From Candidatus Saccharimonadota bacterium (lineage in GTDB: Bacteria; Patescibacteriota; Saccharimonadia; CAILAD01; GCA-016700035): a DNA stretch of 64,000 nt. The stretch is from assembly GCA_046350755.1 (NCBI GenBank), contig JAXLZV010000002.1:19379-83378 (forward strand), given 5' to 3'. Below the pieces are notes generated by a model, which searched no databases, was not told the origin of the DNA, and saw only the letters and a program-made list of their open reading frames with translations. The position numbers and the translations under genes are program-made. How positions within the stretch are numbered: position 1 is the first letter of the stretch; every line of letters starts with the position of its first letter. Of the stretch, positions 2,218 to 64,000 are shown in pieces.

Positions 2218-2246
2218 ATTCTATCAGCTTAAGCTTTATCTGTCAA
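2218..2246 (-). promoter_or_regulatory. Sigma70-type promoter (TTGACA-17 nt-TAGAAT) driving the KGG gene through a ~125 nt leader
   Basis: Minus-strand reading: TTGACAgataaagcttaagctgaTAGAAT. The -35 box is at 2241-2246, the -10 box at 2218-2223, and the spacer is 17 nt. The gene starts at 2085. Confidence 0.5.
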
Positions 2247-2280
2247 TACTTTTATGCTGCGAATACTTGAGTCAAAATTA

Positions 2281-3363
2281 TTAGAGCTGTGAGACAGTAA
2301 AGTCATCAAAGTTGAAGTTCGCATAATCACCGCGCACACCCACCTGACCGCTACTACGCAGTGGTGTGTAGGCAGCGGTTGAATACTTCCCTGGCGTCGA
2401 GCAACCACTCGACCAGCTTGGGTTAGTGCCACCGGCATCAGTTCCAGTTACCAATGGTGTCGTGCCACTCTTATTCAAATCGTAGAGCTTCAGACCCACG
2501 CTACCATCAGCATTATCAACAACGGTTAGACTGTAGCGGTTCCATTGCCCAACTGACCAGTTATTTGGCACATAATTACCAAGTACAAAATAGGTACCCG
2601 AGTTATCCGAGCCACACGGCACTTTTCGCTTCAAGACAACATTACCATCCGCCCGATTAACCGAGGCGTAGTAGAGATTATATTGACTCTGATAGCGTGC
2701 CCAAATGTGGGTCCCGTGCCAGCAGGTATCGTTAGCATTACAGTTCGCGTCATGAATGTCAGTATTTTGCCGCAAACTCAGGTCGATCTGGATATTGCCT
2801 GAGTAGGACTGTTTGGTATTGAGACGAAAGATCGAAGAGTTATTACAATTACTCGAAGTCGCATTCGGATCGACTGAGCCACCGCTACAATCATCCGGGA
2901 CTCCGGTCCAAGCTGTCTGGTTTTGCGCAAACAGCGAGCCGCTCGTCATATCCCAGAGGGTACTTGGCTTCGCATCCACTGCGCCTAAATTCCAATGCGT
3001 GTACTCGCCCGTAATCAAACCGTTACTATAATTGTTAAAGTTTTCGAAGAGTAAGGTAGCTACTGGAGTGGGGCTGATGGTAGTCGGCGCAGGTGCTAAA
3101 AATTCAACATAGCTCCCACCAGATGCATCGCTCGCGGCTGCACCAGTGACCACCTTCACATTACCCCCAGTAGCTGGCCAAGTCTCGACCTCAGTAGCGA
3201 TCAGGCTACCCGCAAAGACTCGCCAGATGACAAAACCGCCTAGCACCAGTATAAGTCCAAGAACTACCGCTAGCTGAGCCTTTGAGGCCTTAAAGGGAGC
3301 CGTGAGACCCGACTGGGTCTTTGAGCGGGCGACATTACTTTTGCGGGTAGTTTTTGTAGTCAT
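2281..3363 (-). CDS. Secreted protein of the paralog family, N-module type: Lys/Arg-rich N-terminus, one transmembrane helix, an 'ETWPATGG...YVEFLAP' module, and a C-terminal domain of unknown (possibly carbohydrate-binding) function
   Basis: The start is set to the internal ATG (MTTKTTRKSNVARSK...), which aligns with paralogs 4163..5695 and 16308..17600. The ORF track extends to 3387 only through a TTG start. The product has no C-terminal CFLIWCW tag. Confidence 0.55.
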   Translation of the reverse strand: MTTKTTRKSNVARSKTQSGLTAPFKASKAQLAVVLGLILVLGGFVIWRVFAGSLIATEVETWPATGGNVKVVTGAAASDASGGSYVEFLAPAPTTISPTPVATLLFENFNNYSNGLITGEYTHWNLGAVDAKPSTLWDMTSGSLFAQNQTAWTGVPDDCSGGSVDPNATSSNCNNSSIFRLNTKQSYSGNIQIDLSLRQNTDIHDANCNANDTCWHGTHIWARYQSQYNLYYASVNRADGNVVLKRKVPCGSDNSGTYFVLGNYVPNNWSVGQWNRYSLTVVDNADGSVGLKLYDLNKSGTTPLVTGTDAGGTNPSWSSGCSTPGKYSTAAYTPLRSSGQVGVRGDYANFNFDDFTVSQL

Positions 3364-3377
3364 AGTTTTATCAAAAT

Positions 3378-3411
3378 AGCATAACAAGTAGAATGTGTTA
3401 CTTGTTATGCT
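3378..3411. promoter_or_regulatory. Perfect 13-8-13 inverted repeat (AGCATAACAAGTA-gaatgtgt-TACTTGTTATGCT) overlapping the -10/+1 region of the 2281..3363 gene promoter. It is either an operator candidate or the terminator hairpin of the upstream gene.
   Basis: The arms are exact reverse complements. A candidate promoter TTGACC(3430-3435)-17 nt-TAGCAT(3407-3412) on the minus strand places the transcription start inside the palindrome. Confidence 0.45.
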
Positions 3412-3431
3412 ACTTCTGAGCGCAGCCTAGG

Positions 3432-3929
3432 TCAAGCTTTGGCAGCTGGCTTGGCTGGTGGTTGAGTTGAGCCAGAGCCAAGATCGATCGGCTGAGGGCC
3501 ATGATACTTAGCCTTACCAAAGGCCAAGATCAGTGTTCCAACTGGTGAGAATATGATGAGCCCAAGGATGGCAAATAGCGTGTCCTTGCCGAAGGCTTTT
3601 GCCAAATCAAGCATAATCAGGATCCCAACAATCAGGTTTACAAACGGCACAAAGAGCAGCAGTAGCCACCACCCTGGTCGACCAACAATCTCGAGCATAA
3701 TGTAATAGTTATAGATTGGAATCAGCGCCTTCCAGCCCGGTCGTCCAGCCTTCTCGAAGATCTTCCACATCGCCACGAGCATAATGACCACGAAGACCAA
3801 CATAAATAAGAAATACGCGCCTAAAAACGCGCCTAGCCCAGCTGCTTGCGCACCCGATAATTCGGTTGTCGTGGCATAGTCATAGCTATCAAAGCTCGTC
3901 TCTGCCAATTGCATAAATACTGATAACAT
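3432..3929 (-). CDS. Small polytopic membrane protein (4 predicted transmembrane helices; conserved 'WKIFEKAGRPGWKALIPIYN...GRPGWW' motif family)
   Basis: Hydrophobicity pattern was read from the translation. A GGGAG Shine-Dalgarno sequence lies 6 nt upstream. The gene is embedded in the secreted-paralog array. Confidence 0.5.
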   Translation of the reverse strand: MLSVFMQLAETSFDSYDYATTTELSGAQAAGLGAFLGAYFLFMLVFVVIMLVAMWKIFEKAGRPGWKALIPIYNYYIMLEIVGRPGWWLLLLFVPFVNLIVGILIMLDLAKAFGKDTLFAILGLIIFSPVGTLILAFGKAKYHGPQPIDLGSGSTQPPAKPAAKA

Positions 3930-4162
3930 AATTACTCCCTCAAGTTATTACTGCTCTAAGTCTACGCTTACCTCTACTTCAGCCGCAAGTCGTCTATTCG
4001 ACCCAGCAGAAGAACAAGAAACAACGCATCGTGGCAGACTTGATGTTCATGGGGAGCCTTTATATCTATTGATGTTATGTATACGTATCTGCCACTATCT
4101 AAACATAAGTGAATTGATTTGAAGCAGGTTTGTATATCCGGTACTTTGCTTCGCTGCCGAGT

Positions 4163-5695
4163 CTACTGCTGCTTGGATTGAAGTAAGTTTTTGATAACTG
4201 CTCCGTATGGGAAAGTTGCCCCCGTGTTATTGTCGGTCACGAGGCTTGGCCCGTAGCAGCCTTCGCCAGAGTCCCAGGCCCAAGACGTATGAGCATACTG
4301 ATGGGTCTCCGCCCAATTAAAGCTATTCGTCACAAAGTCAGTTCCTGATTGGTCGAGGGGACAATGCATCGTACCGTATTCGCCTAGATAGAACGGCATG
4401 ACCGTATTAATATTTGGTACCGGATATGCATAGTCTGGTCCTGGTCCGTGACCGTCTTTCAACTGAGAATCGAAATAGGCTTGCGAGGATGCGTCGCCAG
4501 CATTGGTGCCGCTGATGTCCTGGTAGGCATGGACTGATGCTGCAAGCTGTTTCAGCGGATCATTCGGCTTGTACGCACCCATGAGACCAATTCCACCATT
4601 ACCAGCACCAATTGTTTCGTACATAATCACGTTGGTTGCACCGGTAGCTCGAATCGTATTGACGAGTTCCTGTGTACCAGCAATATGAAGTGTTTTACCC
4701 ACATTAGCGAGCGCCACTGTACGACCATCGCTGGCAGTGTATATATAGTCACCCCCATCTCGGGCGAGCTTCCAGCCCCATTCTTCGGCCGCCCAATAGT
4801 TACCGCTCACGATACTACTCGGACAGCCACTACCAGTTCGGCACCAAATGGTTGGCTCATTGTAGAGGTCAAAGGCAACGTTCGGATACGCCTTATAGGC
4901 TGTGGCAACCTGCTGCCAGAATGGTATTGAGTGCTCTTTATTTGGGCCAACATCCATGCCGTTGTAGTCGCCATTATAGCTATTTTTTCCAGGTAGCCAA
5001 TCACTAAAGCCGGTTGACCACTGTAAGTCGAGAACAACATACATACCCTGGGCACTCAGCTTATCGACCACACGCTTTAAGAATGCTTGATAATTCGCAC
5101 CCGCGTAGGCAGCCGGTGCACCATTGATACCAAGCCAACATTCTTCATGTAAGGGCAAGCGGACAGTATTGATCGCATGGCCACCCTTTGATGTATTGTC
5201 CCAATTTAGCAGAGACGTCGCCACCGTATCGGCATAAGCTAGCTGAGTGGCGTTATTTGTACCACCTTGATCAGTAATAAATTTATTCTGTTGAGTGCAT
5301 GCGAACTCCATGCCGGCTCGATTGATGCCACGTGGTGTGATCACTTTGCCGCTACCATCGACGAACTTGTCTCCAGACACTCTTAGCACCGGTGCCCCTG
5401 ATGGTACAGGTGTAACAGTTGGTGTGAGAAACTCTAAATAGCTCCCACCCGAGGCGGTATTATCGGCGACGGTCTTAGTATTCCCACCACTGGCTGGCCA
5501 AGTCTCAACTTCGGTTTGGCTGGTAGCGGCCAGGACGCGCCAGACAATGATGCCACCGATGACGAGGATTAAGCCAATGACGATCGCTAGTTGTGACTTA
5601 GAGAACCTAAACTTAGCATTCAGAGCTGACTTACTCCTGGGCCGAGCGACGTTGCTCTTGCGAGTGGAGGTTTTGCGGATAGTTTGAGCGGCCAT
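4163..5695 (-). CDS. Secreted GH5-family glycoside hydrolase (cellulase/mannanase-like), N-module type paralog
   Basis: GH5 catalytic signatures are present: acid/base 'VAFDLYNEPT' (NEP) and nucleophile 'FYLGEYGT'. The N-terminus is MAAQTIRKTSTRKSNVARPRSK plus a transmembrane helix plus the 'ETWPASGG...YLEFLTP' module. Confidence 0.75.
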   Translation of the reverse strand: MAAQTIRKTSTRKSNVARPRSKSALNAKFRFSKSQLAIVIGLILVIGGIIVWRVLAATSQTEVETWPASGGNTKTVADNTASGGSYLEFLTPTVTPVPSGAPVLRVSGDKFVDGSGKVITPRGINRAGMEFACTQQNKFITDQGGTNNATQLAYADTVATSLLNWDNTSKGGHAINTVRLPLHEECWLGINGAPAAYAGANYQAFLKRVVDKLSAQGMYVVLDLQWSTGFSDWLPGKNSYNGDYNGMDVGPNKEHSIPFWQQVATAYKAYPNVAFDLYNEPTIWCRTGSGCPSSIVSGNYWAAEEWGWKLARDGGDYIYTASDGRTVALANVGKTLHIAGTQELVNTIRATGATNVIMYETIGAGNGGIGLMGAYKPNDPLKQLAASVHAYQDISGTNAGDASSQAYFDSQLKDGHGPGPDYAYPVPNINTVMPFYLGEYGTMHCPLDQSGTDFVTNSFNWAETHQYAHTSWAWDSGEGCYGPSLVTDNNTGATFPYGAVIKNLLQSKQQ

Positions 5696-55614: not shown

Positions 55615-58113
55615 CTATGCACTCGCTACCACCTCTGGCTCTGACTGCTCAGCCTTGACCTCCGGCTTGGCAGGCCGCATTTGAATTGCCGCCGAGACTT
55701 CCTCATCAACTTCAGCTTTTGGTCGGCCATACTTCGAGCGAGACAACTCTTTCATGGCCATCGCTGCCTGTGCATTGACCTCACCGACAGGTGGAAATAC
55801 CGGATTAACGGTAAAAGGAATCGTTGGCAAACCATTCGCCATCAGCTTAATAGCACCGGTTAGATTTGGCATATTGACCAAATCGTTACGGTCAAAGCTG
55901 GGTTCAAATTGCTTCTCTAAAAATTCCGCATCTTCCGGCCCACAACGATACGAGAACAACGTGCCAACATTACCAAAAACAGCACCCCGAATTTGCTCAG
56001 TTAGCTGACCAATGAATTGATTGGCCACCACCAGACTGAGGTTATACTTTCGAGCCTCTGACAAAATCGTAGCAAAACTATCAGTCGAAAAGTTCTGAAA
56101 CTCATCAACATAGAGAGTAAACTGCGGCATCGCAGCTTTATCACGGCCGGATCGAGCCAGCGCCGCTGCCAGCAGCTTAATCACAAACATCATGCCGAGT
56201 AGCTTCGAGTTATTCTCACCAACCAAGCCTTTGGAGAGATTAACGATCAAAATCTTTTTGCCGTCCATGATTTCGGTAAAATCAAACGCACTCTTATGCT
56301 GACCAATGATATTGCGCATAATCTCGTTGGAGAGAAATGCTCCCCACTTTGAGACAAACCAACCAAGCATTTCACTCTTGTGATAGTCGGAGGTCTGGCC
56401 CATCTCATTAATCCAAAAATCCTGTACCGTCGGATCGGTCACATATTTAAATTTGGCCTTCAGAAAATCATCATCCAGAAATGGTTTCGGTACCTCTAGG
56501 AAGGTTGCACCATTCGGATCGGCCATAATCGTCAGGGCAGCCTGGCGAAACCAGTGTTCAAAGCGCGGTCCAATGATGCCCTGCTGATCTGGATCATACA
56601 GCTTATAGAGCATATTTATAATCTCTTGAATGACAAAGTCTTTTTGCTCGGGGTGCTTAGGATCAAACTCCATAATATTCAGACCTACCGGCATGGCTGC
56701 GTCAGCCGGATTAAAGTAGATCACATCCTCCACACGGCTACGCGGCACCTTTGCGAGCACCGTTTCGGCTAACTCACCATGCGGATCAATCACGCATAGA
56801 CCCTTACCAAGCGCCATATCTTGCACGATAAGATCTTCCAATAACACGGACTTACCCGTACCAGTCTGTCCGATCACATACATATGTCGACTACGATCCT
56901 TATCGGTTAGACGGACGACCTTCTCCTTGCCCTGGAAGAAGTTTGACCCTATTACCACACCGTCAGTCGGTAGATCAGCCGGTCCAGAAACTTCCTTTTT
57001 ACCCTTCCGCTCGACTGGTGTGCCAATTTCATTGGAGATATCCGGCAGATGAAAGATCGTGGCCAGCTCAGTTGTGTTGAGAATCATGCCACCCTGATTC
57101 GCTGGAAATAGTCGAAAAATGAAGTTGGCCGCCAAATCCCGAGGTGTTCGGGCTTCGCTATAGCTAAAACCATTACTCCCCGGCTGATTAAATTGCGCAA
57201 AACCATTAATAATATCCTGAACAATCATCTTGCTCTGCGGTAACTGACTCGAGCTGGCGACGATACGAATCAGGGTTTCAAACGTCGGCTCGCTGGCTTT
57301 CTCCTCGATTGCCTGAGCAATCCTCTGGTCAATTGAGTCAGATTGTTTCGTTGGATCAATCTGTTGCTGCTTAGCCTGCCAGTCAGGGCTACTGAATGGC
57401 GCCTTGGCGACTTGCGCTGCGATATTCATCGGGTCATTAGCTTTGGCCTTCGACGGATTCAGCAGGCCCTTCGCCTGCCGCCGGGCATTTTTTGAGAATT
57501 TATCGGAGGTCGGACGTATCATGATTTGAACCGCCGCACCTTCATCAGCCTTTAAGCGCGACAAACCTGACAACATGCCACTCAAGGGATCAAAGTCGAG
57601 AGTCTTATACGTCTGGATTGGATACATACTTTTGTTTGTCAGTCGCAACTCACCACCACTGACGGTTTGAATCTTACCGGTTGATGAAAAAATATTATGA
57701 TCAGCAACGTGCACGATCTGAATGCCAGGATAGGCAGCGATTAAGGCTTTCTCGACAGATGTTACTAAGCCTGCCGGTACCGCCACGTAAAAAAATATCT
57801 GCTCACCCTGGGCAACGATTTCAAAAGCAATATGCCGCTGTGAATACAGCCAGCTCTTGGCAAACGTACCTGATAGGAGAGTAAAAATACCTTCTGCTTT
57901 GGAAATGTTTTCTTTGATTTCTTCGCGATCATCGCGCTGCGAGTCATCAGGCTCAGCCGGTGGTAGACGTAGCAATAATGGCACCATTTTCAAACTTCGC
58001 TCGATGTCTTTAGCGTGCCGAGCACGCCTACGCAAGAGCAGCCCGACCACCACTCCCAAAATGGCTAATATCACCAACAAACCGATAAACATACCTATCT
58101 GAAACTGGGTCAT
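55615..58113 (-). CDS. Membrane-anchored P-loop ATPase of the type-IV-secretion family (VirD4/TraD coupling-protein-like or VirB4-like AAA_10)
   Basis: An N-terminal transmembrane helix; Walker A 'GQTGTGKSV' immediately followed by 'CVIDPHGE'; Walker B 'LYVDEFQNF'; and a downstream 'VVANQ'. The length is 832 aa. Family assignment below the superfamily level is uncertain. Confidence 0.45.
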   Translation of the reverse strand: MTQFQIGMFIGLLVILAILGVVVGLLLRRRARHAKDIERSLKMVPLLLRLPPAEPDDSQRDDREEIKENISKAEGIFTLLSGTFAKSWLYSQRHIAFEIVAQGEQIFFYVAVPAGLVTSVEKALIAAYPGIQIVHVADHNIFSSTGKIQTVSGGELRLTNKSMYPIQTYKTLDFDPLSGMLSGLSRLKADEGAAVQIMIRPTSDKFSKNARRQAKGLLNPSKAKANDPMNIAAQVAKAPFSSPDWQAKQQQIDPTKQSDSIDQRIAQAIEEKASEPTFETLIRIVASSSQLPQSKMIVQDIINGFAQFNQPGSNGFSYSEARTPRDLAANFIFRLFPANQGGMILNTTELATIFHLPDISNEIGTPVERKGKKEVSGPADLPTDGVVIGSNFFQGKEKVVRLTDKDRSRHMYVIGQTGTGKSVLLEDLIVQDMALGKGLCVIDPHGELAETVLAKVPRSRVEDVIYFNPADAAMPVGLNIMEFDPKHPEQKDFVIQEIINMLYKLYDPDQQGIIGPRFEHWFRQAALTIMADPNGATFLEVPKPFLDDDFLKAKFKYVTDPTVQDFWINEMGQTSDYHKSEMLGWFVSKWGAFLSNEIMRNIIGQHKSAFDFTEIMDGKKILIVNLSKGLVGENNSKLLGMMFVIKLLAAALARSGRDKAAMPQFTLYVDEFQNFSTDSFATILSEARKYNLSLVVANQFIGQLTEQIRGAVFGNVGTLFSYRCGPEDAEFLEKQFEPSFDRNDLVNMPNLTGAIKLMANGLPTIPFTVNPVFPPVGEVNAQAAMAMKELSRSKYGRPKAEVDEEVSAAIQMRPAKPEVKAEQSEPEVVASA

Positions 58114-58454
58114 GACTGCCCAACGTCCAGGTTAAACCGTTTTTTCAGATAATCTCGACTTAACTCAGCCTGACGGACTTGCAGAGCAAATGGGTCATCA
58201 CCCAGTTCACGAATATTCGCCTCAACGGCGTCAACCCAAGTTTTCTCAATCAGATCAGTATCGGCTGCCGAGAGGGGAGTCTGATTGGCAACTAGCGCCG
58301 GAGTAGTCGTGGCAGCTTGGGCGACTTGGTCGCTGGCTGCCGCAACATTGTGCGACGCTTCGGGAGGGGATTGATCTGGAAACGGATTACTAATCACCTG
58401 AGTCCGAATTGGCCCCGACGATGCAGGCTTTGGCTGTTCGGCAGATGTCTTCAT
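58110..58454 (-). CDS. Hypothetical soluble protein (114 aa), translationally coupled (4-nt overlap) to the downstream ATPase
   Basis: ORF only. It has an Ala/Thr/Pro-rich N-terminus. Confidence 0.3.
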   Translation of the reverse strand: MKTSAEQPKPASSGPIRTQVISNPFPDQSPPEASHNVAAASDQVAQAATTTPALVANQTPLSAADTDLIEKTWVDAVEANIRELGDDPFALQVRQAELSRDYLKKRFNLDVGQS

Positions 58455-58510
58455 ACTACTTATGATTATAGTGCTTCTAGAGTACGATTGCGACCTTCTT
58501 CACGCTCGGC

Positions 58511-59941
58511 TCAGGTATGCACCCAAACGGGCGTCCCCACTGGAGCCCAATCGTAAAGAAAGGCGGCGGCGGCATTCGGCATATTTACACAGCCGTGACT
58601 GCCCCCATAGTAGTAATCGGCCCCGCCAAAGCTCGATCGCCAGCTTGCGTCATGAAGACCATAGCCAGAGTAGAAGGGCATCCAGTACTGTACAAACACA
58701 TTGTAGTTGTAGCCGTAAGGTCGACCATTCAGATACGTGTTGCGCGCCTTATAGTAAATTGCGAAGGTACCCGTTACGGTCGGGAAACCGGCCCCAGTCG
58801 CACCACTGGTCACCGGTGTCGAATAGACGACTTGACCATTTTCATAGGCCCACAGATATTGCCGACTTAAATTCACTTCAATATAACGCGGGGCATCCAG
58901 ACTAGTGGTCCGCGTAGTTTCCGTGCGGAAAGCCACTGGATTCGTCTTCAGGCCAATCGTTGCGTCGCGATTATCACGCATCGCAGCCATTACCTCGGCA
59001 ACAGCTGCCTCCTGATCAACTGCGTATCCATTGCTGCCTTCACGATCAACTGAGGTGACACCATTCTTGATCGTCACTTTTTTGTTGACTGGATTTTTAT
59101 TGACCTGATTGGCAACCGACTGGACCCAGCCACGAACCTCTTGCTCATTTACCTTCACCAGTAATTTTGAAGGATTCACCTCACTATCGGGCTCCACCTT
59201 AATCCAATAGCCAATGTTCGTCGGGGAGGCCGCAAAGGTACGACCCTCATACGTTAGGCTCACCTGTCGCCCCAATAACTGCTGAGCCGAAGTCGTCGTC
59301 GGCTGGACTTCGCTGGCTTTAATGGGCGCCTCGACCGACTGGGTTTCGAGTTGGAAAGTCGCGTCCTTAGCTTCGGCTAACGCCCCAGAAACTAGTTGGG
59401 TAACCCGCGTTCGATCAATTCCCAAGCCGGGCTTATCTGGTATTACCACCACCTGACCTTCCTTAACTTGTACTACGGCGCTGGTTGCCGGCTGCCCAAC
59501 TGATTTCACAACGTCACTGGTAAAAGCATTCAGCTTTTTGTAGTCAAGCTTATAAGCATAGGCCAATTCGCCTTGTGAGAGCGCCGTCCAGACACCAATT
59601 ATTGGCAGCGGCTGATCACGACCAACCTGATAAGCTAACTCCACTGTAGCCGGAATATCATACTCAGCTCCTAGTTGTTGACTAGAGGCCGTAAACTCCT
59701 TTCCGTCGACCATGATCTTGAGGTTCCTATCGAGCGGCTGGCTTTGCAGCTTAGCGATTGCCTGCTGCCGAGTGAGTCCGGCTACCGAAACATTGGCAAC
59801 CGTTACGGATGGGTAGATGACCCCCTCCAACCAAGATGAGACGAGAGCATTAGCCAAAATCACGAAGAAGAGCGGGGCTAATACAAGAAACCAATGTCGA
59901 GAATGGATATTCGACGCTGAGAGACGCTTGGGATGACTCAT
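58511..59941 (-). CDS. L,D-transpeptidase (YkuD-domain) protein with an N-terminal signal anchor
   Basis: The C-terminal catalytic domain has 'HDASW...YGGSHGCVNM' (the L,D-TPase His/Cys motif). The start is set to the ATG at 59941 (MSHPKRL...FLVLAPLFFVILANALV). The ORF-track GTG start is at 60013. Confidence 0.7.
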   Translation of the reverse strand: MSHPKRLSASNIHSRHWFLVLAPLFFVILANALVSSWLEGVIYPSVTVANVSVAGLTRQQAIAKLQSQPLDRNLKIMVDGKEFTASSQQLGAEYDIPATVELAYQVGRDQPLPIIGVWTALSQGELAYAYKLDYKKLNAFTSDVVKSVGQPATSAVVQVKEGQVVVIPDKPGLGIDRTRVTQLVSGALAEAKDATFQLETQSVEAPIKASEVQPTTTSAQQLLGRQVSLTYEGRTFAASPTNIGYWIKVEPDSEVNPSKLLVKVNEQEVRGWVQSVANQVNKNPVNKKVTIKNGVTSVDREGSNGYAVDQEAAVAEVMAAMRDNRDATIGLKTNPVAFRTETTRTTSLDAPRYIEVNLSRQYLWAYENGQVVYSTPVTSGATGAGFPTVTGTFAIYYKARNTYLNGRPYGYNYNVFVQYWMPFYSGYGLHDASWRSSFGGADYYYGGSHGCVNMPNAAAAFLYDWAPVGTPVWVHT

Positions 59942-60076
59942 AGTTTCTTTCTGACACCTGTTCGTTGTTGCCCTCAAGTATAGACGTATCAGGCTGAAAA
60001 AACTATATCTCACTTATGCTTGCGCTGAGCTATAAGGCTCAATAAATCGCATACAATATGTATACGAAAAAGTTGC

Positions 60077-62902
60077 TTACCGTATGCTCAACTCAGCTTC
60101 ATCTGGTAAGGAGTGCTTGAGGGCTGCATAACACCGCTTTATCAACTGAGTGATTCTTTCGGCTGAGGGCTGTGGGCCAGCATCTAGACGAAGACGACAA
60201 CTGAGCACTCGCCGACCCACCTGGTGAAGCTTCGCATCGGCAAAAGTACTGAGAAATTCCACTGAAAATACTGCTTTTTGACGTCGTAGTATACGCTCTA
60301 TCATCTGCCACTGTATAGCTTCGTCGATTTCAAGGCTTACATCTCGTATTATCAATTGATATTCAGGTATTGGCTCGACTAATTGCTTCCGTCCCAATCT
60401 CATCAACGGCTCAAGTTCTAATTCACACCAAGCAAAGACCTGGGATAGACCAAAGCTACTGGCGACAGCGGCTTTCACCTGACCAAAACCTCCAATCCGA
60501 CGATCATCCAGATAGATATCGACAGCTCGCTGACCAACCAAATTCTGGTCTGTAGTCGGGTGGAATTCTAGTGGCCAATGGCGAAGGGCAGCCAATCGAT
60601 GAAGATAAGCCTGCAGGCGCTCAAGAGCATCTTCACCGGCGGTACTCATGCCGAGCCGCCACTGCTCATCGGGCAATTCACCCTGACGACCATGGCCGTG
60701 AAAAACCCGCGACATCTCAAAGGTGATGTGCTGCAGCCTCGAGTGTCCATTGCGCTCCCAAACATACAGATGACTTGAGAGCAGGGTACTACGTAAGTAG
60801 GTTTGTTCGGGAGTACGCGGATTGGCAATCTTCGGCAAAGCTTCAGTCGACTGTCCAGTCGTCTCGGCATCAGCCTGAGAAATAAAACTATAGGTTGCGA
60901 TTTCCGTTCCGCCTGCAGCGATGAGCTGCTGCCGTAATCTCATTTGCTCGGGTAAACTAGATTGTGTATGGGCCGCCATTGGTGGCAGGCCTGGCAAAGT
61001 CTCCGGCATGTTTTCATAACCGACTAGCTTTGCAATCTCTTCAAAAACATCCGTTTCCAGCCGGATATCTGATCGCCACCAAGGCACCTCGACGGCTAAG
61101 ATATGATTGAAGCTCTCAAGATAGCGACGTGCACCCAAATAGCCCGGATCCTGCGTAAACTCTTCAACAGGGGAGACAACCACACCTGTCTGACGCCGTT
61201 TCACCCACTTACCATCTCGATGCTTGTAGGTAGCAGCATGAACCACCTGACCGTTACCGAGATAAATACCATTATGGCCAACCTTCATCGGTTGTTTGAG
61301 CGTGTGCTTCACTTTCTTGCCATCTGGCGCCATCAAATAGTAATGATCGGTCGATGATTTCTCGATAATACCCTCAATAAAGAGGACGTCACCTGGCTTC
61401 AACTGACCCACTTCAACTGGACGCCCGGTATGGATCTGACCCAAAGCCGTATGACCAACAAACACCCCTAATTTGGAGTAAATTCTATCTACTAGATATG
61501 AGCAATCAAAGGCCTCTTCACCATCCGTCCGATAGTTTGCGCCCCACTTATAAGGCTTACCAAGGTGGGACTTTATCTCCTTCGTCAGAGAGAAGTGTTC
61601 GACTCCGAAACCCAGTTTCCGTAGGCCTTGGACGACAGTAGTCTCCGGCAAATCCATACCCAAGAATCGCTCAGCCGTACGTAGCCGCACACCTAAAAAT
61701 TGCTGCCACGGCCAACCATTGAGCTGATCGAACGGACCATCAATAATCTCAGCGTCACAGATTTCGCGCAACAAATCCAACAACCTCCCAAACGCCCACA
61801 GCGACAAGGGGAGAGGCAAGCCTCGCTCAAAGCGCGCTGAGGCTTCGGTTCGCAAGCCATGCCGGACCGCCGATCGACGCACCGTCGCTTTATCAAAATT
61901 TGCCGCTTCGAGCAGAATCTCAGTAGTATGCTCATCTATCTGTGTCTGTGCCGAACCCATAATTCCAGCTAAACCAACTGGACCAGATTCATCAGCCACC
62001 ACCAAGTCTTCATTACTTAAGGTGCGTTGCTCATCATCAAGTGTAGTAATTTTTTCGCCACTCTTTGCCAAGCGCACCGCCAGGGGACCAGACAGTTTCG
62101 CGAGATCATAGGCATGGCTCGGCTGGCCGGTCTCGAGCATGACAAAGTTCGTAATATCAACAACGGCATTATGCGAGACAAACCCATTCGCCTCTAAGTT
62201 ATCCACAAGCCATGCCGGACTTTTTACATCATTTCGAATCCGAACATTTGCCGAAATAAATCGTGGACACTTCCCCACTTCCTTGACATTTACAAATTCG
62301 GTTTTTTTATAGTCATATTGCCCAACCGCCGGTTCTACTACCCCCTGCTCTCTCGTATCGTGAGCGGCTAATTCGCGAGCCATCCCTACTCCACTTAAGT
62401 AATCCCACCGGTTTGCCGGGGTCTTAATGTCCAGGACGGTCCGTGAAAAAACTATGTCGCACAATGATGTACCAAGTTTGTGGCCATCATTTTCGAGCAC
62501 TAAGATACCTGAATGGTCCTCTGAGAGGCCGAGTTCCTGAGAACTCGCTAACATACCGTGCGACTCGACACCACGAATCTTTGACGCGACGATCTTTGTT
62601 CCGTCTGGCAATACTGCGCCGGGCTGCACTAAGACGACGCGCTGCTCAACGGCCACATTCGGCGCACCGCAGACAACTTGGATTTTTTTTGTACCGGTAG
62701 TCACCGTCACGAGCCGCAAGCGATCAGCATTGGGGTGTGGCGCCACATCGATTGTCTTCGCGAGAATGATCTTCTGATCAAGCACATGCCCCTGCAAAAC
62801 TTCCTCAACCTCAATCTCCGTCTGATTCATCAGCTCAACCAACTGCTCCGCCGAACGCTGCTTTTTGAGATAGCGATTTAGTGTCTCAACAGCGATTTTC
62901 AT
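60077..62902 (-). CDS. pheT: Phenylalanine--tRNA ligase beta subunit carrying an inserted ~140 aa NlpC/P60 peptidase-like domain
   Basis: The N-terminus MKIAVETLNRYLK and the B5 'VPWWRSDIRLETDVFEEIAKLVGYENMP' are canonical PheT. Between the B3/4 and B5 regions lies 'PYKWGANYRTDGEEAFDCSYLVDRIYSKLG...PGDVLFIEG...HNGIYLGNGQVVHA', i.e. the NlpC/P60 Cys...His...His motifs. The total of 941 aa compares with ~800 aa for a typical PheT. Confidence 0.9.
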   Translation of the reverse strand: MKIAVETLNRYLKKQRSAEQLVELMNQTEIEVEEVLQGHVLDQKIILAKTIDVAPHPNADRLRLVTVTTGTKKIQVVCGAPNVAVEQRVVLVQPGAVLPDGTKIVASKIRGVESHGMLASSQELGLSEDHSGILVLENDGHKLGTSLCDIVFSRTVLDIKTPANRWDYLSGVGMARELAAHDTREQGVVEPAVGQYDYKKTEFVNVKEVGKCPRFISANVRIRNDVKSPAWLVDNLEANGFVSHNAVVDITNFVMLETGQPSHAYDLAKLSGPLAVRLAKSGEKITTLDDEQRTLSNEDLVVADESGPVGLAGIMGSAQTQIDEHTTEILLEAANFDKATVRRSAVRHGLRTEASARFERGLPLPLSLWAFGRLLDLLREICDAEIIDGPFDQLNGWPWQQFLGVRLRTAERFLGMDLPETTVVQGLRKLGFGVEHFSLTKEIKSHLGKPYKWGANYRTDGEEAFDCSYLVDRIYSKLGVFVGHTALGQIHTGRPVEVGQLKPGDVLFIEGIIEKSSTDHYYLMAPDGKKVKHTLKQPMKVGHNGIYLGNGQVVHAATYKHRDGKWVKRRQTGVVVSPVEEFTQDPGYLGARRYLESFNHILAVEVPWWRSDIRLETDVFEEIAKLVGYENMPETLPGLPPMAAHTQSSLPEQMRLRQQLIAAGGTEIATYSFISQADAETTGQSTEALPKIANPRTPEQTYLRSTLLSSHLYVWERNGHSRLQHITFEMSRVFHGHGRQGELPDEQWRLGMSTAGEDALERLQAYLHRLAALRHWPLEFHPTTDQNLVGQRAVDIYLDDRRIGGFGQVKAAVASSFGLSQVFAWCELELEPLMRLGRKQLVEPIPEYQLIIRDVSLEIDEAIQWQMIERILRRQKAVFSVEFLSTFADAKLHQVGRRVLSCRLRLDAGPQPSAERITQLIKRCYAALKHSLPDEAELSIR

Positions 62903-63900
62903 AGCTGATCACTCAGGAGTAATTGAGGCCGCCAGAGCTTCCGTAAGTCAGTTAAGCCAAACCGCTGCATAGCTAGTCGATCAGGGCCGAATCCAAAAGC
63001 AAAGCCGCTAAATTGCTCCGGATCAATACCGCCACGAGCTAAGACGTGCGGATGCACCATGCCAGCGCCACAGATCTCGAGCCATTCATCTCGATACCAA
63101 ATATCAACTTCGACTGATGGCTCGGTGTACGGGAAAAAGCTCGGGCGAAAACGAATCTTAATGTCCTCGCCAAGCAATGACTGCATAACGTGAAGGAGTG
63201 TCCCCTTCAAATCAGCCATACTCACCGACTCACCAACCACAAGTCCTTCTACCTGATAAAATGACCAGGAATGTGTTTTATCCTCGTCCTCATTGCGATA
63301 GGCTTTACCAGGCACAATGATCTTAAATGGCGGCGTATGCGCTTCCATATAGCGAATCTGAGCCGCTGACGTGTGTGTCCGCGGTACCAAAGACGGACCC
63401 TCTCCATCGCGCTGGATATAGAAAGTGTCCTGCATATCTCGAGCCGGGTGATCCGGTGGCATATTGAGGACTTCAAAGTTATACCAATCGCTCTCAACTT
63501 CGGGCCCATCAACGATCGCAAACCCTAATCGCAAGAAAACATCATAGATATCTGATAGTACGAGCTGGGTTGGATGACCATGTCCAGCCCCCTGGGCTAA
63601 TTTGATCGGCATCGTTAGGTCAGCGGCTGACAAATCTAAGTCAGCGCTCATTGTCAGATCTGCCTCTACGCGCTTTAGGGCCTGCTCACAACCCTGCTTG
63701 AGCGCATTAACTGCCGCTCCATATTGACCCCTCTCTTCATTCGGTAGCGTCGTGATAAGCTTAAAAGCCATCGTTATTTCACCCTGCCGACCGAGAAATT
63801 TGCTACGCACAGCAGCCAACTGGACTGGTGTAGAGACGGCTTTAATTGCAGCATCAAATTTCTTTTTGAGGCTTTGGAGATTGTCTTGGGGCTTAGTCAT
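62899..63900 (-). CDS. pheS: Phenylalanine--tRNA ligase alpha subunit
   Basis: Class II aaRS motifs, including 'GFAFGFGPDRLAMQRFG' (motif 3). There is a 4-nt overlap with pheT. The start is set to the ATG at 63900 (MTKPQDN...). The ORF-track TTG is at 63927. An extended -10 'TGGTATAAT' lies at ~63928-63936 on the minus strand. Confidence 0.9.
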   Translation of the reverse strand: MTKPQDNLQSLKKKFDAAIKAVSTPVQLAAVRSKFLGRQGEITMAFKLITTLPNEERGQYGAAVNALKQGCEQALKRVEADLTMSADLDLSAADLTMPIKLAQGAGHGHPTQLVLSDIYDVFLRLGFAIVDGPEVESDWYNFEVLNMPPDHPARDMQDTFYIQRDGEGPSLVPRTHTSAAQIRYMEAHTPPFKIIVPGKAYRNEDEDKTHSWSFYQVEGLVVGESVSMADLKGTLLHVMQSLLGEDIKIRFRPSFFPYTEPSVEVDIWYRDEWLEICGAGMVHPHVLARGGIDPEQFSGFAFGFGPDRLAMQRFGLTDLRKLWRPQLLLSDQL

Positions 63901-64000
63901 GTCGTTTTGTTCGGAAATATAACTCAATTATACCAAGAGTCAGGAGAAAAAGAATAATATCCCCCATACTCAGCATCCGCAAGCTCTGCATCGCCAAGCC

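Follow-up and report, generated by a model that had tools for sequence, protein, structure and literature searches.

An NlpC/P60-type domain nested in the B5 domain of phenylalanyl-tRNA synthetase beta subunits of Patescibacteria

The window analysed here, a stretch of 64,000 nucleotides from a Candidatus Saccharimonadota bacterium (contig JAXLZV010000002.1), carries on its minus strand a pheT gene for the beta subunit of phenylalanyl-tRNA synthetase (PheRS). Within the B5 domain of the predicted protein, a hairpin of about 10 residues is swapped for an NlpC/P60 domain of about 162 aa. This places an enzyme of the cell-wall-hydrolase type inside an essential synthetase, and the arrangement extends over much of the Patescibacteria, a radiation that accounts for a considerable fraction of bacterial diversity. 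The nested domain is predicted to be a catalytically competent cytoplasmic cysteine hydrolase which rides on PheRS and is dispensable for aminoacylation, a reading to which a probability of about 0.5 was assigned.

Position and fold of the nested domain

Solved PheTs aligned with the window protein from its residue 42 to 434 (their residues 42-437) and again from residue 606 onward (their residue 448 onward), and the Pfam profile of B5 (PF03484) gave a half-match behind the insert. In relatives, Pfam recognised the first half of B5 directly ahead of the insert, and in the AlphaFold2 model of the window protein this half forms a beta-alpha-alpha-beta unit. The two halves flanking the insert each retained their usual secondary-structure elements in the model, as would be expected of a reassembled B5. 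Chloroflexi PheTs possess a plain B5 hairpin, e.g. LGFSCRQTESNSKIHVEVPWWR. The original prediction, made from the letters of the window, had put an insert of about 140 aa between the B3/B4 region and B5. The profile half-match and the alignment to solved PheTs move it inside B5, and its length is corrected to about 162 aa (aa 437-598), the excess being due to two beta-hairpins by which the NlpC/P60 domain is extended (aa 512-541 and 559-573).

Features of the interrupted B5 domain:
61595..61705, minus strand: N-terminal half of B5 (aa 400-436), aligning to solved PheT up to residue ~437; model strands at 401-406 and 433-436, helices at 407-414 and 420-429
61109..61594, minus strand: nested domain, predicted NlpC/P60 (C40) cysteine hydrolase (aa 437-598), from PF00877, AlphaFold2, Foldseek and the ratio of nonsynonymous to synonymous substitution rates (dN/dS)
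61502..61504, minus strand: codon of the predicted catalytic Cys467 (FDCS motif), aligned to the catalytic Cys of solved NlpC/P60 enzymes
61280..61369, minus strand: beta-hairpin extension 1, lineage-specific (aa 512-541, DHYY motif), strands in the model
61274..61276, minus strand: codon of the predicted catalytic His543 (GHNGIY motif), aligned to the catalytic His of solved enzymes
61238..61240, minus strand: codon of His555 (VVHA), predicted third member of the triad, aligning with the second His in solved enzymes
61184..61228, minus strand: beta-hairpin extension 2 (aa 559-573), long model strands at 552-562 and 565-578
61016..61108, minus strand: C-terminal half of B5 (aa 599-629) with the VPWWRxD motif, PF03484 profile positions 37-67, E 3e-12

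As predicted from sequence and model, the insert is a complete, well-folded NlpC/P60 domain (MEROPS C40, papain fold) with a canonical Cys-His-His triad. The NLPC_P60 profile (PF00877) matched aa 448-560 with an E value of 4.1e-13 and 49.7 bits against a gathering score of 23. Catalytic residues were assigned by residue-level phmmer alignment to solved enzymes. Cys467 is the sole cysteine of the insert and begins a model helix (467-476), and the order of the triad is Cys, His, His, i.e. non-permuted. A model of B5 with the insert (23-sequence alignment) reached a predicted local distance difference test score (pLDDT) of 90.2 and a predicted template modelling score (pTM) of 0.86. For full-length PheT (96 sequences) the values were 90.2 and 0.64, with the insert at ~89-96 and one hairpin at ~79. 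The three NlpC/P60 motifs named in the original prediction were all found in the open reading frame (ORF), and two of the checks suggested there agreed with it: the profile match was significant and above the gathering score, and the insert folded in the model as an independent NlpC/P60 domain (pLDDT 90).

When the fold was compared with the PDB by Foldseek, the top matches were solely NlpC/P60 peptidoglycan hydrolases. The best was Acd24020 of C. difficile (7cfl_A, E 3e-9, TM-score 0.82 on the target, 28% identity), followed by Acd33800, CwlO, LytE, MepS, RipA/B, a diffocin hub hydrolase and YkfC (3h41), with TM-scores up to 0.83; for Acd24020, Acd33800, CwlO and LytE the probability was 1.00 and the TM-score on the target 0.75-0.83. 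Extension 1 had no counterpart in solved NlpC/P60 enzymes or in the insert classes of 131-148 aa. Extension 2 likewise had none in solved NlpC/P60 enzymes, and was gapped in 30 of 121 orthologs.

Other assignments were considered and rejected. The LRAT/H-rev107 acyltransferase profile (PF04970) scored 14.1 bits against a cutoff of 24.3 (E 0.058). The permuted papain-like amidases YaeF/YiiX (PF05708, C92) gave no match to the window protein at E values up to 0.1, and the order of residues is Cys then His; in some orthologs PF05708 had sub-threshold or overlapping matches. An intein was rejected since no Hint or intein Pfam match was obtained, the fold is that of NlpC/P60, and the C-terminal junction reads SFNHI, not HN followed by C, S or T. 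The insert is mildly basic (isoelectric point 8.2, net charge +2.5), a value that was uninformative with regard to RNA binding.

On homology, the ORF hosting this domain is a bona fide bacterial PheT, for which charging activity as part of an alpha2-beta2 enzyme is predicted. It starts with ATG and has zero internal stops. TIGR00472, the pheT_bact equivalog hidden Markov model, scored 538.9 bits against a cutoff of 402.65, in two stretches with the insert between them, and Pfam found the PheT domains in the expected order: tRNA_bind, B3_4, B5 (interrupted), the catalytic-like module (CLM) and the ferredoxin-fold anticodon-binding domain (FDX-ACB), the last below its cutoff and present as a fold in the model. 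Foldseek matched the full-length model to all solved bacterial PheRS beta chains (E 5e-64 to 4p71_A). The start of pheT overlaps pheS by ATGA, as read from the sequence, which indicates translational coupling, and pheS adjoins pheT in 76 of 81 loci. The description of the gene as an otherwise canonical pheT, in frame, free of stop codons and coupled to pheS, therefore stands, on the TIGR00472 score and the fold match to solved chains, on the intact 941-aa ORF and on the ATGA overlap, respectively.

Other features of the locus:
62899..63927, minus strand: pheS, PheRS alpha subunit, 342 aa (PF01409, E 3e-89; PF02912)
60077..62902, minus strand: pheT, PheRS beta subunit with the nested domain, 941 aa (TIGR00472; Foldseek against solved PheRS beta chains)
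62486..62767, minus strand: B2/tRNA_bind OB domain (aa 46-139; PF01588, E 1.6e-16)
61757..62272, minus strand: B3/B4 editing domain (aa 211-382; PF03483, E 2.9e-58; residue alignment)
60413..61006, minus strand: B6/B7 CLM (aa 633-830; PF17759, E 1.2e-28)
60110..60367, minus strand: B8 FDX-ACB, diverged (aa 846-931; PF03147, E 0.0015, below cutoff; fold in the model)
58511..60013, minus strand: predicted membrane-anchored L,D-transpeptidase (YkuD and PG_binding_4 by Pfam), 63 nt downstream of pheT

In the B3/B4 domain, the motifs GQPSHAYD, LLEAANF and RTEAS align to GQPMHAFD, LLECAYF and HTDAS of E. coli-type PheT, which we take to hold the editing-site residues (E. coli beta His265, Glu334, Thr354 and Ala356). 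It was also observed that residue 242 (62177-62179, minus strand) is Val, at the place of Arg244 of the E. coli-type editing domain, which is Arg in the family consensus (GxRSIN).

Distribution, conservation and descent

A homolog search yielded 120 clusters at 90% identity, the most distant sharing 41% identity with the query. The proteins were almost always 875-950 aa long and had PF00877 placed between their B3_4 and B5 matches; some were named Candidatus Saccharibacteria and some were mis-named 'C40 family peptidase, partial'. Annotations of insert-bearing PheTs comprised 'C40 family peptidase', 'hypothetical protein' and 'beta subunit-related protein', names that could be corrected. In a scan of one genome per species, the full insert was present in 67 genomes, labelled nearly all as Saccharibacteria, Saccharimonadia or Patescibacteria, with one Howlettbacteria.

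When the insert by itself was searched exhaustively with HMMER, long PheTs in about 30 clusters (50% identity) were recovered, together with a second class of PheTs of 750-844 aa that lack B1/B2 and carry NlpC/P60 at the same place. These short forms came from Parcubacteria/Paceibacteria, with Yonathbacteria, Campbellbacteria, Pacebacteria and Paceibacterota among the names, and PF00877 was detected in 120 of the 120 best relatives of the Paceibacteria form. A third, intermediate group of insert-bearing proteins was also found (P0236, P0177, P0191 and others). Many of its nearest relatives, at ~55-63% identity over the N-terminal half, are without the insert (Falkowbacteria, Moranbacteria, Buchananbacteria and 'Patescibacteria group').

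The original prediction had allowed that the fusion might not be real; the architecture recurs in over 250 cluster representatives drawn from independent assemblies, and this doubt can be dropped. It had also described the domain in a single protein. The presence of the domain holds, and that it is a lineage-wide trait of Patescibacteria had not been foreseen. Nor is the segment a known subdomain of PheT: orthologs share it, but solved PheRS beta chains and Chloroflexi PheTs lack it.

Several individual loci departed from the common arrangement. In a bin labelled Saccharimonadales, a PheT fragment (L068:1-1413) has a plain B5 hairpin, GFVVTPAGRALSVTVPWWR, and no insert; a VirD4-like gene comes next, with no L,D-transpeptidase, and this is a single case for which mis-binning is possible. 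In a Saccharibacteria bin from termite gut (L077), the pheT ORF (2228-5068) is without the NlpC/P60 domain and contains at least three in-frame copies (2461-2563, 2965-3100 and 3929-3991) of a palindromic element of ~100 nt, resembling a miniature inverted-repeat transposable element. The element reads GTCATTGCGAGGAG...CTCGCAATGAC, translated ...ARSVTTKQSS...ARGRNDGG, and one copy lies in the B5 hairpin, at the exact site of the NlpC/P60 insert of relatives. A contig titled 'Candidatus Nanoarchaeia archaeon' (L020, DATIHE010000064.1) holds a bacterial pheS-pheT pair with a Saccharibacteria-type insert, 51% identical to B5 and insert of the window, and was probably mis-binned or mislabelled.

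The PheRS of Paceibacteria is minimal (L081:9265-12322; L082:3160-7361; L083:2777-7355). Its PheS has 243-244 aa, comprising the core domain only with no N-terminal coiled coil, and its PheT is without B1/B2 and keeps the insert; in L082 and L083 unrelated genes lie between pheS and pheT. A further protein, P0133 (1183 aa), contains nine tandem NlpC/P60 domains (PF00877 707 bits, nine stretches) and gave a strong multi-stretch match to the insert.

Conservation of the catalytic residues, an ortholog check that the original prediction had called for, was counted from alignments of three groups: 121 Saccharimonadia, 120 Paceibacteria and 35 other forms of the candidate phyla radiation (CPR). Cys467 and His543 were conserved. 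Among Saccharimonadia each was present in 113 of 121 sequences and both in 112, while all 120 Paceibacteria had Cys and His (117 with the full Cys-His-His triad), as did 35 of 35 other CPR forms; in total the pair was kept in 267 of 276 (~97%). At position 555, Paceibacteria and the other CPR forms almost always have His. In the Saccharimonadia with Cys and His intact this residue is Q (36), H (26), E (20), M (18) or T (10), and this diversification of the third residue suggests a relaxed or altered catalysis in that group.

Mean identity to the query was 0.55 for the insert, on par with B2 and B5, compared with 0.35 for the CLM and 0.33 for B8. In a comparison with a 95%-identical relative (L085), the insert had a dN/dS of 0.055; the N-terminal and C-terminal parts of PheT had values of 0.057 and 0.090, respectively. 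The insert is under purifying selection as strong as that on the rest of PheT.

All three groups shared their junctions and motifs (KPYKxGA, FDCS, PGDxxF, GHxGxYxG, and G(A/Y)RR ahead of VPWWR or the equivalent B5 strand). In a neighbour-joining tree of the PheT backbone rooted with Chloroflexi, insert-bearing proteins occupied most deep branches and insert-less ones formed at least five nested clusters; a tree of the insert alone recovered the host groups. Since distances of insert and host protein co-vary (Mantel r 0.73, reached by 0 of 2000 permutations), the simplest reading is one ancient insertion in the ancestor of a large part of Patescibacteria, followed by vertical inheritance and several clean losses. 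The trees are coarse distance trees without support values, which leave room for a different number of losses and for some lateral exchange. That the insert spread laterally among CPR PheTs in recent times is disfavoured, as trees and distances of insert and backbone agree.

Predicted activity and alternative explanations

If the nested domain is an active hydrolase, the protein would carry a second enzyme for which PheRS serves as a constitutively expressed scaffold. The domain would not be needed for aminoacylation itself, because close CPR relatives work without it. Likely substrates would be soluble gamma-D-glutamyl-diamino-acid peptides, i.e. muropeptides or peptidoglycan-precursor peptides, which would be recycled or scavenged; they are proposed because of the homology to DL-endopeptidases and to YkfC, a cytoplasmic murein-peptide hydrolase. 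The two added beta-hairpins would probably narrow the cleft for small substrates.

A number of points weigh against this explanation. Its weakest step is the substrate: that it is of the peptidoglycan-peptide type is proposed by homology, and is somewhat doubtful. An activity unrelated to PheRS would be expected to undergo occasional fission to a stand-alone enzyme, and no close stand-alone homolog turned up when the insert was the query of the exhaustive HMMER search. In 28 of 121 Saccharimonadia, Met or Thr occupies the third position of the triad. Moreover, 9 of the 121 have lost Cys and/or His, with shorter inserts (110-147 aa) in which the fold is kept, which argues for a non-catalytic role in at least some lineages. 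Those nine keep G504-D505, R592-R593 and F437, which are invariant except for the near-invariant R592, and which look like residues of the fold or of the junctions.

The gene following pheT is likewise of little help to the hydrolase explanation. A homolog of the L,D-transpeptidase lies directly after pheT in 47 of 59 eligible Saccharimonadia loci, and this adjacency is best regarded as lineage synteny, at most a weak hint of function. A functional link through this neighbourhood was rejected because further neighbours are equally syntenic, with homologs of a 114-aa ORF in 44 of 81 loci and of a VirD4-like ATPase in 51 of 81, and because Paceibacteria and other CPR do not show the linkage. In other CPR classes gyrB or glycosyltransferase genes follow pheT, not an L,D-transpeptidase. 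The conserved order (55615-63927 of the window, minus strand; L001-L067) is pheS, pheT, L,D-transpeptidase, the 114-aa ORF without Pfam match and a VirD4/TraG-like ATPase.

The substituted third residue and the nine inserts that keep the fold without Cys and/or His would also fit a non-catalytic module for docking or structure, in which the fold forms a rigid projection of B5 that serves, e.g., contacts with proteins or nucleic acids or the stability of PheRS, the catalytic residues being kept by structural constraint. The Paceibacteria, whose PheRS lost the alpha coiled coil and B1/B2 and retained the insert, point the same way. Such a role is nevertheless unlikely in view of the retention of Cys and His in 267 of 276 sequences over very deep divergence, including 120 of 120 Paceibacteria, and of the fact that this Cys is the only one of the insert. 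The charge of the insert bears no strong RNA-binding signature, and clean losses in several clades argue that PheRS does not need it structurally.

A hydrolase that is functionally coupled to PheRS is a slightly less likely proposal. It might act on an ester of the aminoacyl- or peptidyl-tRNA type, pass a Phe-thioester to an acceptor in the cell envelope, or sense or cleave peptidoglycan-precursor peptides and so tie the capacity for translation to the supply of the wall in these ultra-small epibionts.

The synthetase itself is the only conserved genomic context of the domain, and this, together with the lack of a close stand-alone homolog in the searches made, would suit a chemistry directed at tRNA. 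The Cys would then attack the ester of Phe-tRNAPhe or of mis-acylated tRNAPhe, or the aminoacyl-adenylate, so that the domain would be an extra deacylase or an LRAT-like aminoacyl carrier. The NlpC/P60 superfamily includes thioester-forming acyltransferases, and a weak LRAT match was obtained (E 0.058). This match was below the cutoff (14.1 against 24.3 bits), and both sequence and fold identify canonical DL-endopeptidases as the nearest relatives, in preference to LRAT or permuted forms. The motifs of B3/B4 editing look intact, and close CPR relatives as well as all other bacteria manage without the domain. Chemistry of this kind is considered improbable.

Saccharibacteria are epibionts that must breach the envelopes of their hosts, and the fold of a cell-wall hydrolase and the peptidoglycan-acting L,D-transpeptidase gene after pheT could be taken to mean that PheRS beta, or a fragment released from it, moonlights at the cell surface and attacks the wall of the host bacterium during epibiotic growth. 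This is very improbable: the N-terminus has no signal peptide or transmembrane segment, the domain is nested in a subunit of an obligate cytoplasmic heterotetramer, and the trait also occurs in Paceibacteria, which have different lifestyles. An artefact, whether from a chimera in the assembly, from fusion of genes by a frameshift or from a mobile peptidase cassette acquired recently by horizontal transfer, might be read into the slightly lower GC content of the insert (0.46-0.48 compared with 0.51-0.54 in the flanks) and is refuted by the identical architecture in hundreds of independent assemblies, by the reading frame free of stops and frameshifts, by the co-divergence of insert and host protein and by the dN/dS of 0.055.

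Significance and comparison with known systems

Few enzymes are as conserved as the aminoacyl-tRNA synthetases. To our knowledge, acquired catalytic domains are very rare in bacterial synthetases, and the known ones serve editing. Full-text literature searches, which did not extend to subscription-only literature, found no published description of an NlpC/P60 domain in PheT. The feature appears to be undescribed, though the sequences and their Pfam matches are already in public databases. The closest published statement is that many PheRS beta subunits of CPR lack B2 (PMC5370408), and synthetases have been described as frequent hosts of insertions (PMC13114784).

The insert is a natural case of a tolerated domain insertion in B5, and its presence, absence and catalytic state can be scored from sequence as a marker for CPR evolution. 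It also predicts a concrete enzyme activity that can be tested in organisms now open to genetics (Southlakia, Nanosynbacter). If murein peptides are processed, this would bear on how auxotrophic epibionts obtain or recycle building blocks of the wall. Action on aminoacyl-tRNA would amount to a new synthetase-associated chemistry, and coupling to PheRS would add a catalytic module of a new kind to aminoacyl-tRNA synthetases and give the candidate phyla radiation a molecular signature.

In comparison with bacterial PheRS beta (T. thermophilus 1PYS/2IY5, E. coli 3PCO), the window protein shares the order B1-B2-B3/4-B5-B6/7(CLM)-B8 and the pheS-pheT operon. Unlike it, the solved chains (775-836 aa) have no domain in the B5 hairpin; B8 and the CLM of the window protein are also unusually diverged.

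With the secreted DL-endopeptidases (Acd24020 7CFL, CwlO/LytE, MepS, RipA/RipB) the nested domain has in common the fold, the Cys-His-His order and the motifs PYxWG, FDCS, PGD and HxGIY. Those enzymes are exported and usually possess signal peptides and wall-binding domains, whereas the nested domain has neither; it also reads FDCS-Y or FDCS-S in place of FDCSG and has the two added beta-hairpins. The window PheT has no hydrophobic N-terminus and its other Pfam domains are all PheT domains, which places it outside the secreted DL-endopeptidases.

YkfC of B. cereus (3H41), also an NlpC/P60 protein, was found among the fold matches (rank 20, E 4e-7) and by sequence (E 9e-4). It is a gamma-D-glutamyl-L-diamino acid endopeptidase of murein-peptide recycling and acts on soluble murein peptides, not on the sacculus. 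YkfC is a stand-alone enzyme in which SH3b domains cap the active site, whereas the insert of the window is without SH3b and is no closer to YkfC than to the secreted enzymes.

As an enzymatic domain nested within a domain of a synthetase, the predicted hydrolase resembles the CP1 editing domains of the class I synthetases LeuRS, IleRS and ValRS. CP1 is universal and acts on aminoacyl-tRNA, whereas the NlpC/P60 insert is lineage-specific and dispensable, and belongs to a family without a known tRNA substrate.

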